Shown here: piece by piece, positions 11,501 to 26,519 of the stretch
How positions within the stretch are numbered: the stretch's first letter is position 1
How the letters are laid out: the number at the start of each line of letters is the position of its first letter
From: an uncultured Bacteroidaceae bacterium
Lineage (GTDB): Bacteria > Bacteroidota > Bacteroidia > Bacteroidales > Bacteroidaceae
Reading direction: 5' to 3'
Length of the DNA stretch: 26,519 nt
NCBI GenBank assembly: GCA_964596865.1
Contig: CAZQVW010000002.1
Coordinates: forward strand, 1-26,519
Notes under the pieces: generated by a model
Databases searched by the model: none
The model's input: only the letters and a program-made list of their open reading frames with translations
What the model was told of the DNA's origin: nothing
Program-made: the position numbers and the translations under genes

Positions 11501-11544
11501 GTAGGGGCGAATGAGCAGCGTAGCGGCGTGTTTCCCGTCCCTAT
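11501..11544 (+). repeat. GTAG-type REP-like imperfect inverted repeat
   Basis: GTAGGGGCG (11501-11509) pairs with CGTCCCTAT (11536-11544, using G-T pairs). GTAGGGGCG is also present at 15604 (+) and 17855 (-). Confidence 0.5.
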
Positions 11545-11602
11545 ATGGCTCAAAGAAAGCCCATATATGGCTCAAAGAAAGCTCCTATATGGCTCAAAGA
11601 AA
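11539..11602. repeat. 22-bp tandem repeat, 3 copies
   Basis: Identical 17-bp core TATATGGCTCAAAGAAA at 11542, 11564 and 11586 (period 22); copy 2 contains the palindrome CCATATATGG (11561-11570). Confidence 0.95.
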
Positions 11603-11715: not shown

Positions 11716-13386
11716 CTATATCATCATCAACAGAATCATCTGGACGAGGATGACGCGGGCGAACATACACAGGGGATAGACAGTGGTATAGGCAACGGAG
11801 GCCTTGTCGGACGAGGAGGTGTCGTTCACATAATCCAGAGCCATGGGATTGGCCATCGCTCCGCATAGCAGTCCGCCCACCGTAGCCAAATCCAATCGGC
11901 AGAAGCGCAGTATCAGCCAGCCGCACGCCACCACGGGCATCACCGTGATGAGAAATCCCAATGCCACCCACATTGCGCCCTCCGGCCGGATGACGGTATC
12001 GAAAAATCTGGGCCCGGCCTGCAATCCCAGGCAGGCCAGAAAGACGGCCAGTCCCAATGCGCGCAGCATCAGATTGACAGAGGAGGTGGTATATGTGAGC
12101 ATGTGGAAGCGCGGGCCGTAGGCGCCCACAAGGATACCGATGATGATGGGGCCGCCCGCGAGCCCCAGTTTCACCGGCACGCTCATCGAGGGTATCGTTA
12201 CGGGCACAGAGCCGAGGGCCACGCCCACGATTATTCCAATGAAGATTGCCACGAGGTTTGGCTCGTCCAAATTTTTCACCACGTTGCCCAGCAGGTTGGC
12301 CACGTGCTCCACAGATTTTTCTTCGCCGATGGCAGTGAGGCGGTCGCCGATACGCAATACCAAATCGGGCGTTGCCACCAGTTCCATGCCGGCGCGCTTC
12401 ACGCGGCTCACGTTCACTTGGAAGCGGTTTCTCAATTGCAGTGCGCCGAGGCGCTTGCCGTTGATTTCGCGCTTGGTGATAACAATTCTTTTGGAGATAA
12501 GATTGCGGTCGAGCTTGTTCCAATCTATTCCGGCCTTGTTCCAATCATCGCTGTCGCGCTCGCCAAAGAAGATTGTGAGGCGCTCCAAATCTTTTTTCTT
12601 TGTGATGACGAGGATACGGTCGTTGGCTTTGAGGATGGTGGTGGCATCGGGCAGGCTCACCTTGTCGTCGCGCCACAGGCGGGACACCACAAACTCGTTG
12701 CCGGTGAGCTGGGCCACCTCCTTGAGCGTCTTGCCCATCACGGCGGGGTTCTTGACGTGGAAAGACACGATAAAGGCCTCGTTTTCCTGCTCCTCGGACG
12801 CCGACTGTTTGGTGGATTTCTTGCCTATGTGGGTGAAGCGCAATACCATGTAGGCCAATATTACGCCCACCACGCCCAGCGGGTAGGTAACGGCGCATCC
12901 CAGCGACATGGAGGCCGCCTCATCGTTCATTCCCATCTGGGAGAGGGCTTGCTGGGCCGTGCCGAGGGCGGGGGTGTTGGTGGTGGCGCCGCAAAGCACG
13001 CCCATCATATCCGTTAGCGACACGGGCGTAACCCACGAGCAGGCCACGGCTAATAATGTGCCAACTATCACTACCCCTAAGGCCAACAAATTCAATGTGG
13101 TGCCCCCTCTGCGGAAGGCACTGATAAAGCCCGGGCCCACCTGTAATCCCAATGTGTACACAAACAATACCAATCCGCTGTTCATGGCATATTGCAGGAT
13201 TACGGGATTAATCCTCAATCCACAATGCCCCGCCAAGATGCCCATAAAGAATACAAACGTAACGCCCAGACCCACGCCTCGGATTTTCAGGCGGCCTAAG
13301 GAAATTCCCGTGGCGCATATCACTGCTATCAATAGCAGTGCGTAGACATCTTGAGGCAGTTGTAAAATTGTATTTAGCCAATCCAT
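11716..13386 (-). CDS. AspT/YidE/YbjL family putative transporter (aspartate:alanine antiporter-like) with TrkA-C domains
   Basis: 556 aa from MDWLNTIL; hydrophobic N- and C-terminal blocks with LFVYTLGLQVGPGF, GATTNTPALG, KLGLAGGPIIIG, GAMANPMAL..YTTVYPL; central soluble RCK_C-like repeats (VVSRLWR..D, VSRVKRAG). Start set at 13386 because the -7 promoter box lies inside the longer ORF extension. Confidence 0.88.
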   Translation of the reverse strand: MDWLNTILQLPQDVYALLLIAVICATGISLGRLKIRGVGLGVTFVFFMGILAGHCGLRINPVILQYAMNSGLVLFVYTLGLQVGPGFISAFRRGGTTLNLLALGVVIVGTLLAVACSWVTPVSLTDMMGVLCGATTNTPALGTAQQALSQMGMNDEAASMSLGCAVTYPLGVVGVILAYMVLRFTHIGKKSTKQSASEEQENEAFIVSFHVKNPAVMGKTLKEVAQLTGNEFVVSRLWRDDKVSLPDATTILKANDRILVITKKKDLERLTIFFGERDSDDWNKAGIDWNKLDRNLISKRIVITKREINGKRLGALQLRNRFQVNVSRVKRAGMELVATPDLVLRIGDRLTAIGEEKSVEHVANLLGNVVKNLDEPNLVAIFIGIIVGVALGSVPVTIPSMSVPVKLGLAGGPIIIGILVGAYGPRFHMLTYTTSSVNLMLRALGLAVFLACLGLQAGPRFFDTVIRPEGAMWVALGFLITVMPVVACGWLILRFCRLDLATVGGLLCGAMANPMALDYVNDTSSSDKASVAYTTVYPLCMFARVILVQMILLMMI

Positions 13387-13446
13387 AATAAATCTTGTTG
13401 GATAAAAAGAAGACAGAGGCAAAATAGTGTGCTTGTTCTTGCGGAA

Positions 13447-13456
13447 TGCAAAGTTA
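13447..13456 (-). promoter_or_regulatory. Bacteroidetes sigma-70 -7 element for the transporter
   Basis: Minus strand reads TAACTTTGCA, matching TAnnTTTG, 62 nt upstream of the ATG. No clear -33 TTTG was found. Confidence 0.65.
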
Positions 13457-13597
13457 GAAATTTTTCCTAACATAATCTGCTCACGTAGGACTAACGACAA
13501 TGTGCACCGCAAATTTTGCCAAAAGCCTGCTACGCCGCATTTCTTGCGTTACAAATTCCGAAAAGTCCGAGAAAAAGGCAAAAAAGCTCGCGCAAAA

Positions 13598-13702
13598 TCC
13601 ACTTCCAATCGTTTTGACTATCGTTAACAGTGCTGTAACAATAACTAAACAGTACTGTAACAATAACTAAACAGTACTGTTAAGATAATGTTACAGTACT
13701 GT
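13598..13702. repeat. Dispersed element: 22-bp-period array of ACAGTACTGT palindromes with a conserved left flank (copy 1)
   Basis: ACAGTGCTGT at 13627 and ACAGTACTGT at 13649, 13671, 13693 (period 22). 13649-13702 is a 54-bp imperfect palindrome (24/27 pairs). 13598-13654 matches 26463-26519 at 55/57. Confidence 0.95.
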
Positions 13703-13747
13703 GAACGCAAACTATCTCGGGATTTTTTGAAATTAGCAGGGCGATTT

Positions 13748-13779
13748 TTTGCCGCTTCGCGCGAAAAAGACTAAATTTG
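13748..13779 (+). promoter_or_regulatory. Bacteroidetes sigma-70 promoter for the sulfatase
   Basis: TTTG (13748-13751), 20-nt spacer, TAAATTTG (13772-13779): canonical TTTG-N19-21-TAnnTTTG. Confidence 0.75.
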
Positions 13780-13884: not shown

Positions 13885-15483
13885 ATGAGACATCCTTCAT
13901 TGATTTTCGGCGTTCTGTCGGCAGCCGCCATAAATCCTTTGTTCTCGCTGGCGCAACAAGGACAAAACGGTGGTAATAAGCAATCTAATCCTATCGGTCA
14001 GCGTACGGGCGTGGTGGCTCAGCGCCCCAATGTGGTGTTTATCTACGCCGATGACTTGGGATATGGCGATTTGGAGTGTTATGGTGCGAAGAATGTGAAG
14101 ACACCTAATGTCAATCGCTTGGCAAAGGACGGCTGCCGCTTCACTAACGCGTTTGCGGTGGCGGCTACCAGTACGCCGTCGCGCTATTCCCTGCTCACGG
14201 GCGAATATTCGTGGAGGCGTAAGGGCACCGATATAGCGCGGGGCGATGCCGGTATGATTATCAGACCGGAACAATACACCGTGGCCGACCTATTCAAGAA
14301 CGAAGGCTATGCCACGGGCGCTTTTGGCAAGTGGCACCTCGGGCTCGGCGACAAAACCGGTGAGCAGGATTGGAACGCCCCGCTGCCGTGCGGGTTGGCC
14401 GACCTCGGGTTCGACTATTCGTATATCATGGCCGCCACGGGCGACCGTGTGCCCTGCGTCTTTATTGAGAACGGGCGCGTGGCCAACTGGGATGCCGACC
14501 ACCCCATCTATGTGAGCTACACCAAACCCTTCGCCGGCGAGCCCACCGGTAAGGACAGGCCCGACCTCTGTTATAATCAGATGTGGGATTACGACCACAA
14601 CCAAGCTATCGTGAACGGTATCGGGCGCATAGGATGGATGAAGGGCGGCGGCAAAGCGCTGTGGAAGGATGAGAATATCGCTGACTCTATCGCCGCTCAC
14701 GCCGTGGCCTTTATGCGCAAACATAAGGACGAACCGTTTTTTATGTACGTGGCTACTAACGATATTCATGTGCCCAGATTTCCCAATCAGCGCTTCCGCG
14801 GAAAAACCAACATGGGTGTCCGCGGCGATGTGATTGCTCAATTTGATTGGACGGTGGGCGAAATCCTCCAAACGCTGAAAGACCTGAAATTAGACGACAA
14901 AACCCTCGTCATACTCACCAGCGACAACGGTCCGGTGGTGAATGACGGGTATAAAGACCAAGCGGTGGAACTGCTGAACGGCCATAGTCCGGCGGGCCCC
15001 TTGCGCGGTAATAAATACAGTACTCTTGAGGGTGGCACACGCATTCCCTTTATCGTGCGCTGGCCCGGAAAAGTGAAGGCTGGCGAGCAATCCGCCGCCC
15101 TGCTCTCACAAATAGATTTCTTTGCGTCGATGGCCAACCTCCTGCAGGCCAAAATCCCTGCGGGCGCGGCAAAGGACAGTCGCAACGCCCTCAATACGTG
15201 GACAAATATCGTGCCGACCGACCGCGAGTGGGTGATTGAGCAGGCTGTGGACCACACCCTTTCCCTTCGCAACCGCACATGGAAATATATCGAGCCTACC
15301 GATTCGCGCCCCTACGTGGACGCGGCCCAGCATATTGATATGGGCTATTCCCCGCAGCCCCAATTATATAAAGTAAGCGAGGACGTCCACGAAGATAACA
15401 ACGTGGCCGCCCTCTATCCCGACACCCTCTTTCGTATGCAGACCCTTTTAAGGCATCTGGCCCGCCAGCGTGCACAATATTAG
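13885..15483 (+). CDS. Ser-type sulfatase (family S1, arylsulfatase-like), secreted
   Basis: YADDLGYGD metal ligands, formylglycine motif STPSRYSLLTG with Ser, GKWHLG, SDNG; N-terminal signal peptide ending ..LFSLA-QQ. Confidence 0.92.
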   Translation: MRHPSLIFGVLSAAAINPLFSLAQQGQNGGNKQSNPIGQRTGVVAQRPNVVFIYADDLGYGDLECYGAKNVKTPNVNRLAKDGCRFTNAFAVAATSTPSRYSLLTGEYSWRRKGTDIARGDAGMIIRPEQYTVADLFKNEGYATGAFGKWHLGLGDKTGEQDWNAPLPCGLADLGFDYSYIMAATGDRVPCVFIENGRVANWDADHPIYVSYTKPFAGEPTGKDRPDLCYNQMWDYDHNQAIVNGIGRIGWMKGGGKALWKDENIADSIAAHAVAFMRKHKDEPFFMYVATNDIHVPRFPNQRFRGKTNMGVRGDVIAQFDWTVGEILQTLKDLKLDDKTLVILTSDNGPVVNDGYKDQAVELLNGHSPAGPLRGNKYSTLEGGTRIPFIVRWPGKVKAGEQSAALLSQIDFFASMANLLQAKIPAGAAKDSRNALNTWTNIVPTDREWVIEQAVDHTLSLRNRTWKYIEPTDSRPYVDAAQHIDMGYSPQPQLYKVSEDVHEDNNVAALYPDTLFRMQTLLRHLARQRAQY

Positions 15484-24253: not shown

Positions 24254-26389
24254 TCATTTACTGATGAAAATATTGCTTTGCAGGTCGCGGAAACTGTCTC
24301 TCACTTCCTTAAATTCCTGCCAGTCGGCGGCGTCATAGACGCGCTTAAAGAACTTGGCATTGGCCGTGAGCTTGAGCGTCTGTCCGGATTGGGCGAGCGA
24401 GGCTTTGAGCGTGGCGGGGGCGTGGGTGATGTCCTCGTTGATGGGGTCTGTCTGCATTTTCATGCCCGCGGGCAGGAGCATGGTCTCGTCCACCACCACT
24501 TGGCGTGAACACCTATCCCTAAAGGCGTATTGGCGCGTGGAATTGTTGCCGCCCACGTTGAGGAACGAGAGGATGTGCGTGTAGAAATTGTTCATTGTGA
24601 GGGGCTTGAATAGCATTCCCTCGCTTCCGCCCACGGCATAGTTGGGTATGCGGAAGCGGAATGTGATTTTAATGGGGGCGCGTTGGTAGTCTTTCGGGTC
24701 TGGGCCGTAGTCTACGTCAAGTATCTGCGCCTGTGGCGACACTTTCAGCATCTCGCCCTCCATACTTTGCTGCCAGTTGCTTTGCCATCCGCGTGTGAAC
24801 ACACTGCGCACGCTGGCATCGCTCTGGCCCTCGGCCTGCACGGTGGCTATGCCGACGAGTGTGCCATCGGCCTGCAGTGTGTCTCTGGCAATGAGGCGGA
24901 TATAATGATTTTCGGGCGGCGAGAGGGGCGTTTCCTTGAGGTCGCTACCCTCCGGAATGCCGGGCAGATAATTTTGCTGCTGTTCGGCACTGCTCCACAG
25001 CTCCCTGCAGAACGGCACCCACGTAGGATCCATTGGCATCAGCGTGCCATTTTTCAGTTTCACCACGCACACGCAGTGGTTGAAGTGGTCGGCGGGTATT
25101 TGTTCCACTCGGCTGCCCGCCATCGTCATGGCTGGCCACGCCTGGAAGCCCGCAGTGCGCAATAGTCCGATGAGCGTGCCGGCGATGTCCTTGCATACGC
25201 CGCCGCGGTCGGTGAGGTCCATATTCAGCGAGTGGAGCGTATAGCCTTCGCCCTTGCCCATGGTCAATCCCACGTAGCGGATATTGTCGGCCACCCAGTG
25301 GGTGAGGGCGGCAATCTTCTCCATTTCCGTTTTCTTGCCCTTAAGGATTTCTTTTACCAATTTCTTGGCCTCCGGCGTGGTGCGAAATGAACCGTAATTC
25401 TCGTTTACATGGTTAAACCACAGGGATTTGGCTTTCCAATCCTTGGTGGTGGACAGCATCAGTTTGGGAGCCACGTCAAAGAGGTCTACCATAGAGGTCT
25501 CTTTGCGGAAAGGCACTTGGTTGGCGAGCGCTATCCTTAGTGTTTGCCGCCCGTTGGCGGTGGATTTCACTTCCTCTTTCGCACCATTGTATTGATAGAG
25601 ATGGTATTGCAACTTGCAGGTGTCGGGCAGCTCCACTTGATACACCTTTCTGCGCGTGGGTTCGTCCACCCACATAGGCACGATGTCGTAGAATTGCCCT
25701 CGCATCGGCGGAGTAAAGCGTTCTTCGTCTGCGTCCGCCAAAGGGGTTGCCGAAACTGAGGAATAAGAGTGTGTTCTGCCCCCTATCGCGCCCGTGCCTA
25801 CTTTTAAGGTGTTCGCCCCTCCTCCAAAAGTGCTGAAACCGGTGGGATTGTCGGCCAGCAGCGCATAGGTAAAACCTTTCTTTTCTATCTCATATTCAAT
25901 GGTGTCGCCCTTGTCAATCGGGCCCAGCTCCAGCATTATCTGGCGCGCGCCCCAATAGATGGAGCGGGCGGGAGCGGCGTAATCCTTGGCCGCGCGGACG
26001 TCCACTTCTTTCACACTGCCGTCAGCCTTGCAAATTCGTGCATACTTAAATTGGGCGAACGCCGTGAGAGGGTCGTAATCATATACTACGCAGTGGCGAG
26101 CAAGGCCGGCAGACGCGCTTTGTATCACTTCTTTCTTTACTATATAAAATGTGCCCGAGCCGCTACCACTGACATTGACGTAAGTGCTATCGAGCAGCAT
26201 CACCGCTTCCGCGTTACTAAAAGCCTGTTCCACATCTGTTTGGGCTGTGGATTTGGCCATGGCCTGCGCCCCCGTGAATAACGGCATTATCGCCACGGCA
26301 GTAGCGCCCAGCATCAAGGTTGTGTTCCTGCGTCCGCAACGCATGGCGGAGCGTAGACGCCCACAAATAGTCTTATGAAATCTTTTCAT
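24254..26389 (-). CDS. DUF3857 + transglutaminase-like domain protein (711 aa, secreted) with an intact catalytic triad
   Basis: GGVCKD (Cys), FNHCVC (His), MDPT (Asp); WVADNIRYVG precedes the core. Signal-like N-terminus ending GAQAMA. Start 26389 chosen because the promoter lies in the ORF extension. Confidence 0.85.
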   Translation of the reverse strand: MKRFHKTICGRLRSAMRCGRRNTTLMLGATAVAIMPLFTGAQAMAKSTAQTDVEQAFSNAEAVMLLDSTYVNVSGSGSGTFYIVKKEVIQSASAGLARHCVVYDYDPLTAFAQFKYARICKADGSVKEVDVRAAKDYAAPARSIYWGARQIMLELGPIDKGDTIEYEIEKKGFTYALLADNPTGFSTFGGGANTLKVGTGAIGGRTHSYSSVSATPLADADEERFTPPMRGQFYDIVPMWVDEPTRRKVYQVELPDTCKLQYHLYQYNGAKEEVKSTANGRQTLRIALANQVPFRKETSMVDLFDVAPKLMLSTTKDWKAKSLWFNHVNENYGSFRTTPEAKKLVKEILKGKKTEMEKIAALTHWVADNIRYVGLTMGKGEGYTLHSLNMDLTDRGGVCKDIAGTLIGLLRTAGFQAWPAMTMAGSRVEQIPADHFNHCVCVVKLKNGTLMPMDPTWVPFCRELWSSAEQQQNYLPGIPEGSDLKETPLSPPENHYIRLIARDTLQADGTLVGIATVQAEGQSDASVRSVFTRGWQSNWQQSMEGEMLKVSPQAQILDVDYGPDPKDYQRAPIKITFRFRIPNYAVGGSEGMLFKPLTMNNFYTHILSFLNVGGNNSTRQYAFRDRCSRQVVVDETMLLPAGMKMQTDPINEDITHAPATLKASLAQSGQTLKLTANAKFFKRVYDAADWQEFKEVRDSFRDLQSNIFISK

Positions 26390-26412
26390 CCTTTTATAAT
26401 TTATTTTGCCCA

Positions 26413-26443
26413 CAAAAATACCACTTTTCCCCCTCCTGCCAAA
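26413..26443 (-). promoter_or_regulatory. Bacteroidetes sigma-70 promoter for the DUF3857 operon
   Basis: Minus strand TTTG (26443-26440), 19-nt spacer, TATTTTTG (26420-26413), 23 nt upstream of the ATG. Confidence 0.7.
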
Positions 26444-26462
26444 ATTTTCCCCCGAGAGAGTT

Positions 26463-26519
26463 TCCACATCCAATCCTTTTGACTATCGTTAACAGTGCTG
26501 TAACAATAACTAAACAGTA
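26463..26519. repeat. Second copy of the 22-bp palindrome element, truncated at the window end
   Basis: TCCACATCCAATCCTTTTGACTATCGTTAACAGTGCTGTAACAATAACTAAACAGTA matches 13598-13654 with two substitutions, in the same orientation. Confidence 0.95.

Follow-up and report, generated by a model that had tools for sequence, protein, structure and literature searches.

Results

Genes and palindrome array of the window

The window, which is the whole stretch of DNA analysed here, is the entire contig C2 (26,519 nt) of the uncultured Bacteroidaceae genome G000, a metagenome-derived assembly of 2.2 Mb in 235 contigs that is 85% complete and from which contigs shorter than 2.5 kb are missing. Between the genes of an Asp-Al_Ex/TrkA_C transporter and a sulfatase lies an element of ~130 bp (13599–13728, copy 1), which consists of arm A, four boxes of the form ACAG-YR-CTGT, and arm B (Table 1). 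The boxes start at 13627, 13649, 13671, and 13693, exactly 22 bp apart as an earlier note on this DNA had read them, and TRF also gives 22 bp as the period of the array. The first box is ACAGTGCTGT and the other three are ACAGTACTGT, while the spacers between them are, in order, AACAATAACTAA, AACAATAACTAA, and TAAGATAATGTT. The motif ACAGTRCTGT has eight strand-wise matches in the window, where 0.03 would be expected, and none of 100 shuffles reached eight. The inverted repeat of 54 bp (13649–13702) with its dyad around 13670–13681, also pointed out in the earlier note, was confirmed to be 89% self-complementary (48 of 54 bases, i.e., 24 of 27 pairs), and so was the recurrence of the left 57 bp of the array at the end of the window (26463–26519, 96.5% identity). 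This second copy is cut short because the window is a whole contig. The 28-bp sequence that precedes box 1, once described as a nonrepetitive flank, is indeed present at both places, but it is a part of the family, namely arm A.

A putative promoter of the sulfatase gene can be read from the sequence, with a −33 TTTG at 13747–13750 and a −7 box TAAATTTG at 13772–13779, by inference from the Bacteroidetes TTTG/TAnnTTTG consensus, and the position proposed earlier for this promoter is thus plausible. Its −33-like TTTG falls inside the first degenerate flank unit next to arm B. Searching metagenome contigs via the sulfatase protein yielded no conspecific locus, the best match having 79% protein identity, no synteny, and no boxes, and the search of Logan contigs for the sulfatase gave one contig, which breaks at the right end of the element.

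Table 1. Coordinates of the genes and element parts in the window
Feature	Position	Strand	Remarks
Asp-Al_Ex/TrkA_C transporter gene	11716–13512	−	Longest ORF; true start probably further downstream; bystander
Arm A, copy 1	13599–13626	+	CCACTTCCAATCGTTTTGACTATCGTTA, 28 bp; one of two alternative left arms
Core	13627–13702	.	Four ACAG-YR-CTGT boxes and three 12-bp spacers, orientation + + −
Arm B	13703–13728	+	GAACGCAAACTATCTCGGGATTTTTT; right end of every complete copy
First degenerate flank unit, ~21 bp	13729–13752	+	GAAATTAGCAGGGCGATTTTTTGC; weakly shared with some other copies
Sulfatase gene	13885–15483	+	Bystander; relatives in other species without upstream element
DUF3857/transglutaminase-like gene	24254–26473	−	Longest ORF; likely ATG near 26391; bystander of copy 2
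Copy 2, cut by contig end	26464–26519	+	Arm A variant CACATCCAATCCTTTTGACTATCGTTA, box 1 at 26492, one spacer, half of box 2

Copy number and independent contigs

BLAST and pattern counts revealed 391 boxes in 181 arrays across G000, so the label “dispersed” given to the array in the earlier note was, if anything, an understatement. The element stops 147 of the 470 contig ends, which therefore identifies the copy at the end of the window as an assembly break, and a further 30 arrays are contig-internal, which together correspond to ~100 copies in 2.2 Mb. All of the assembled copies are intergenic.

Four public metagenome runs from two studies yielded contigs in which the element and its junctions recur. 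The locus of copy 1 is occupied in three of the four runs, where flank contigs enter the element from both sides and carry SNPs that mark different strains, while the fourth run was uninformative; no contig of the four runs skips the element at this one locus compared, i.e., no empty site was found. The summed depth over the core is 300 to 670 times the flank depth, a sum that overcounts because k-mers repeat within an element, and it agrees with a copy number of the order of 100 or more.

Anatomy of the element family

The anatomy of the family was derived from an alignment of 40 complete copies. Complete arrays always contain four boxes, the distance from box 1 to box 4 is 66 bp in all 40, and no array among the 181 has more than four boxes. 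Because of this fixed span and box number, the array is not a variable minisatellite. Arm B forms one side of every complete copy, and the opposite side is either arm A (24 of 40) or an inverted arm B, here called B′ (16 of 40). Genome-wide, there are ~49 to 59 A ends and 164 B ends, 158 of which adjoin box arrays. The 12-bp spacers, which are AACAATAACTAA and a few variants, are inserted in either orientation and make up seven patterns, with + + − accounting for 25 of the 40 copies. The boxes are ~40-fold less variable than the spacers, with two substitutions in 1280 noncentral positions versus ~6.6%, whereas the dinucleotide at the box center varies among TA, TG, and CA. Conservation is highest at the center of the element and decays outward without a sharp end, and a CG/GGG signal recurs every 21 bp outward from the element. 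Loose contig ends of the public runs show where other copies diverge from copy 1, and they put the boundaries at 13719–13735 on the right and near 13580–13600 on the left.

Arm A translates into ..TSNRFDYR followed by a TAA stop codon abutting box 1, in the same frame in all of the ~59 arm-A copies. No long ORF precedes this frame, and no protein ending in ..TSNRFDYR was found. The idea that arm A is a remnant of the C terminus of DUF6078, a protein family treated below, was dropped because none of 151 family members ends in this way.

The dominant + + − form is predicted to fold into a stem of ~32 bp with a 12-nt loop, with a fold energy of −28.8 kcal/mol as DNA (z −6.5) and −47.7 kcal/mol as RNA (z −6.3), and none of the shuffled sequences folded as well. 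The spacer orientations of 15 of the 40 complete copies, however, break the long stem, and no covariation was seen between the centers of boxes 1 and 4, which such a hairpin would bring together. A search of Rfam gave only sub-threshold matches to microRNA-type hairpins, the best having 26.8 bits against a threshold of 56.

Relation to genes and to ~21-bp tandem arrays

The intergenic regions that contain copies of the element may be convergent, divergent, or tandem. Whichever the arm type, it faces a gene start in ~60% and a gene end in ~40% of cases, at scattered distances with medians of ~260 to 340 bp, and −7 boxes (TAnnTTTG) have no fixed offset to the element. The earlier proposal of a portable operator that rewires nearby promoters therefore finds no backing in the distance or orientation of the copies. 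Because neither orientation nor offset is fixed across the genome, the proximity to promoters in the window is incidental: it follows from the residence of the element in long intergenic regions and is not that of a designed control region.

Most copies are flanked by tandem units of ~21 bp, nAGGnCGGGA-W5-TnGnATTn, which are homogenized per locus, and the flank of copy 1 has weak similarity to the flanks of some other copies. Such repeats are abundant throughout G000: TRF reported 357 rows of period 21, 139 of period 22, and 127 of period 42, and merging gave 381 intergenic arrays of 21 to 22 bp that cover ~40 kb, or ~11% of the noncoding DNA as estimated with crude gene calls. Small samples of four sister genomes contained seven to 12 such arrays per 100 kb where present, versus 21 in G000. 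The periods 21, 22, and 42 dominate all other tandem-repeat periods in G000, and the arrays have locus-specific units with 60 to 100% matches and up to ~13 copies, an example in the window being 11542–11602. A second dispersed family in G000 is made of ~3.8 tandem copies of a 22-bp unit, GCAGCGTTCCCTTCGGTGCGCA, with 75 core matches at ~34 loci (e.g., C1:5494-5576, C1:14736-14819, and C100:2751-2834), none of which is in the window.

Distribution of the element and private families of sister species

The element was not found in 25 genomes of sister species, and BLAST with the element found no match in 18 species of the same genus or in 12 other families. The box pair was found in none of 400 sampled genomes of the order, while the same search gave 137+135 matches in G000 and 0 with the reversed-pattern control; viral contigs scanned for the box pair gave 0 matches, and the metagenome contigs searched included none that was conspecific.

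Sister species possess arrays of their own. In G425, the box TATAAGAATT forms 99+38 pairs at 22-bp phase; in G009, the box GGAAYRTAMGTTCY forms 86+95 pairs at 21-bp phase; and in G016, the box GTTTCNTGTACANGAAAC has 95+95 matches. The boxes of G425 and G009 were not found in the other four genus genomes tested, and that of G016 has a single match with two mismatches in G013, a yield that does not exceed that of the reversed-pattern control. All four genus members that were properly examined carry a private family of ~50 to 100 copies with the same build of four dyads two helical turns apart and with its own palindrome. Array positions on one 46-kb contig of G425 are only partly matched in G000. 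Of only three arrays that are comparable between the two species, one precedes a gene that has a G000 copy upstream as well, and at another locus G000 has a different ~21-bp array. At G000:C23:1-127 and C28:15380-15470, there are unrelated ~21-bp arrays where the G425 counterparts carry the private array of G425, a hint that arrays may turn over in place.

A scan of species-representative genomes extended the search to other genera. Among the matches listed, the ACAG-YR-CTGT box recurs between spacers and arms that are unrelated to those of G000, at 22-bp phase in Parabacteroides sp. PFB2-10, Parabacteroides sp. 52, Dysgonomonas sp. 521, and a Bacteroides MAG, and at 22- to 23-bp phase in a Treponema MAG. 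The arrays in those genera likewise lie between housekeeping genes. The family of Parabacteroides sp. PFB2-10 has ~23 to 30 copies of fixed length with crisp inverted ends of 20 bp. Eight contig ends of this strain stop ~18 bp into a four-box element and continue as poly-G; their interpretation as the ends of a longer element (“IS ends”) was rejected because they represent poly-G sequencing failure at the hairpin. No protein family was found that is common to the neighborhoods of the array loci in five genomes.

Search for transposases and signs of transposition

Neither Y1/RAYT (PF01797) nor rve nor DDE_Tnp_1 was found in G000, an assembly that is 85% complete and of a kind in which insertion sequences often fail to assemble. 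Y1/RAYT is also absent from G009, G425, G016, and G013, and three of the five genus genomes are at least 98% complete. Y1 genes do exist in the genomes of Parabacteroides, Dysgonomonas, and Bacteroides, but none of them lies close to a box. In the 16 B′/B copies, the inverted arms match over 10 to 43 bp, and no target-site duplication adjoins the arm ends of any of them, while the other 24 copies have the unlike arms A and B. No longer element sharing the ends was found, and ends of the element are almost absent outside arrays.

The earlier note had supposed an undescribed nonautonomous mobile element and had looked to copy number, target-site duplications, and empty sites for evidence of it. 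BLASTN gave a high copy number, ~100 in the genome, and the element is dispersed, apparently undescribed, and nonautonomous. Mobility itself found no support: no target-site duplication was found in the 16 B′/B copies, and no empty site at the one locus compared, which is occupied in all three informative runs.

DUF6078 proteins beside phased palindrome arrays

A palindrome array with a period of 22 to 23 bp lies ~20 to 40 bp behind five of six genes for DUF6078 (PF19555) proteins, found in G034, G035, G016, and G013. In G016, the array that starts ~25 bp after the DUF6078 gene has the box that is dispersed in that genome over at least 25 contigs. The own array of the gene is the palindrome GTTTCATGTACATGAAAC, and dispersed copies are 70 to 82% identical to this home array, with the similarity starting at the stop codon. 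In the Treponema-labelled MAG, a DUF6078 gene (G035:C161:4001-4402) has a 22-bp array of ATGAAACA..TGTTTCA directly behind it; the presence of DUF6078 in a genome so labelled, outside Bacteroidota, may reflect horizontal transfer or a binning error.

HMM, tblastn, and motif searches found no PF19555 member in G000, which is weak evidence because the assembly, 85% complete, lacks contigs shorter than 2.5 kb, and a gene with arrays on both sides would have gone missing. PF19555 was not found in G009 (99% complete) and G425 either, nor in three isolates with ACAGTACTGT arrays, and the DUF6078 genes found sit beside other palindromes, never beside ACAGTACTGT arrays. The family has 355 representatives at E ≤ 0.001. 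DUF6078 is modelled with confidence (pLDDT of 94.6), and a Foldseek search with it against the PDB gave nothing at E ≤ 0.001. The best hit of a wide VIA fold search, with rows for Aca10 and Xre-type helix-turn-helix proteins, has a Z score of 4.9; because this is below the stated noise level of the tool, no fold can be assigned to DUF6078. The term “DUF6078” occurs in no paper found.

Discussion

We consider, with a probability of roughly 55%, that the array belongs to a species-private, ~130-bp intergenic repeat of phased palindromes, whose boxes are recognition sites of a protein and whose copies arose in a lineage-specific burst. This reading builds on the observed copy number, modular build, intergenic position, absence from the sampled relatives, and private families of the sister species. 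The four ACAG-YR-CTGT dyads, which presumably lie on one face of the helix, would be sites for a dimeric, cooperatively binding protein that presumably coevolves with the repeat, and a DUF6078-type protein is a candidate for this partner by analogy with the sister species G016. The copies might have spread between intergenic regions that already held degenerate ~21-bp tandem arrays, driven either by the binding protein or by gene conversion in which the flanking arrays served as homology.

Among the alternatives, it is hardly credible that the array arose by neutral local duplication or through faulty assembly. The window itself might suggest so, since it contains only two copies, one of them at a contig end, and the earlier note had named such a pair, if it came with no defined ends, polymorphism, protein binding, or effect on expression, as the mark of a neutral local duplication. 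That case is refuted by the 181 arrays of the assembly, and the copies are, moreover, imperfect and fall into subfamilies, while the reproduction of the element and its junctions by independent contigs of four runs from two studies speaks against an artefact. Very unlikely, too, is a private multi-operator that would control the transporter and sulfatase genes diverging from it and, independently, the DUF3857 operon. The array does lie between two divergent promoters, ends 45 bp from the −33-like TTTG, and presents four dyads on one helical face, but ~100 copies adjoin genes that are unrelated to each other, point toward gene ends in 40% of cases, and keep no fixed spacing to a −7 box, and the array is missing upstream of sulfatase relatives in other species. 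What survives of the multi-operator for a dimeric protein proposed in the earlier note is that the boxes look like sites of a dimeric protein; the regular relation to promoters does not.

An ordinary MITE, that is, an insertion sequence shortened by deletion and mobilized in trans by the transposase of its parent element, which binds the inverted arms, would account for the high copy number, the strictly intergenic position, and the restriction to one species, and both the inverted arms of 10 to 43 bp in the B′/B copies (16 of 40) and the crisp 20-bp inverted ends and fixed length of the comparable Parabacteroides family would fit it. We nevertheless regard this explanation as rather improbable, given that arm ends are undefined, that the center and not the ends is most conserved, that 24 of the 40 copies have unlike arms, and that the assembly contains neither Y1, rve, or DDE_Tnp_1 nor a longer element with the same ends. 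A classical MITE is at odds with the blurred borders of the element, with the lack of a target-site duplication in every B′/B copy, and with the embedding in ~21-bp arrays. These three features would fit a spread through conversion between related arrays, a step that we infer. A REP/BIME-like hairpin that acts in RNA or single-stranded DNA as a stabilizer, a terminator, or a barrier, with the palindromes kept for folding, is an unlikely alternative. In its favor, the ~32-bp stem of the + + − form, with a z score of about −6.5, beats all shuffles, copies occur in convergent, divergent, and tandem regions, and sequencing reads break off within the element in the Parabacteroides family. The long stem is broken by spacer orientation in 15 of the 40 copies, though, no RAYT was found in the five genus genomes and no GTAG head in the element, and the box sequence itself, beyond mere pairing, is identical in unrelated genera. 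Recognition by a dimeric protein is favored over the hairpin because the boxes are invariant, the spacers are flippable, the centers of boxes 1 and 4 do not covary, and the box is kept across genera. Still, the strong core hairpin predicted for the main subfamily leaves room for a role in RNA or DNA structure.

Comparison with known systems places the element apart from each of them. A literature search for the exact box returned only microRNA primers and the like, and one on the class of phased palindrome arrays found nothing relevant beyond BrickBuilt. BrickBuilt of Porphyromonas gingivalis is composed of one to 22.8 direct repeats of 23 nt without spacers, has leader and tail segments of ~300 nt, and is bounded by 12-bp terminal repeats of the IS5 type, GAGACCTTTGCA (Klein et al. 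2015, PMC4596501). The two elements share a Bacteroidales host, an always intergenic position near promoters, a period of ~22 to 23 bp, restriction to one species or its close kin, and ~20 to 100 copies. The element of G000, however, always has four palindromic boxes and arms of ~26 bp, and it comes with neither IS5-like ends nor DDE_Tnp_1. BrickBuilt is therefore the nearest published element and yet different in every defining feature. The other analogues named in the earlier note fail in the same way: plasmid iterons are direct repeats located next to the rep gene or origin of a replicon, whereas here dyads stand in ~100 chromosomal copies between housekeeping genes, and Tn7 ends are directional 22-bp TnsB sites that bracket cargo, whereas here the sites are palindromic and form one 76-bp block with no cargo and no rve.

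The REP/BIME (REPIN)-RAYT systems resemble the element in being high-copy intergenic palindromic mosaics that form species-specific families, and in the idea of a single-copy gene whose product recognizes its own flanking repeat. Here, in contrast, neither arm has a GTAG/CGTC head, and no Y1/RAYT was found in G000 and the four sister genomes; four dyads phased strictly at two turns are foreign to REP. REP-like motifs of the type GTAGGGGC do occur in G000, 188 of them at ~160 loci, including 11501, 15604, 15752, and 17855 in the window. The BOX elements of Streptococcus pneumoniae consist of a repeated middle module enclosed by two end modules, exist in ~100 copies, and have no known transposase, and the element agrees with them in its modular build, copy number, and lack of a known transposase, but the number of boxB modules varies, these modules are not palindromic dyads, and there is no sequence relation. 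LytTR sites, 9 bp long with 12-bp spacers, would be a further conceivable parallel. The DUF6078-linked phased arrays share with the element short palindromes at 21- to 23-bp phase, dispersed intergenic copies, and a different palindrome in each species. They differ in that, for the element, no DUF6078 gene or home array was found, while it has an unusually high copy number of ~100, two alternative arms, and flippable spacers.

A further possibility, which we put forward tentatively and consider doubtful, is that a small protein of the DUF6078 type, or an analogue of it, and the repeat form a fast-evolving pair with a species-specific palindrome code, present at ~100 intergenic sites as four dyads on one helical face, which would spread without target-site duplication, possibly by conversion among ~21-bp arrays that existed before. 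On a practical level, a single element of ~100 copies accounts for 31% of the contig breaks of the assembly, and this class of repeats therefore limits the short-read assembly of such genomes. Whatever makes the 21- to 22-bp tandem repeats shapes promoter regions genome-wide, and the private palindromes of each species imply a rapid turnover of the recognition code, as in REPIN-RAYT. If the partner of the repeat is the DUF6078 family, that would give a function to a protein family absent from searchable papers, and if the fast-evolving pair of protein and repeat is real, it would represent a new class of selfish or architectural DNA in bacteria that is distinct from both MITEs and REPIN-RAYT.
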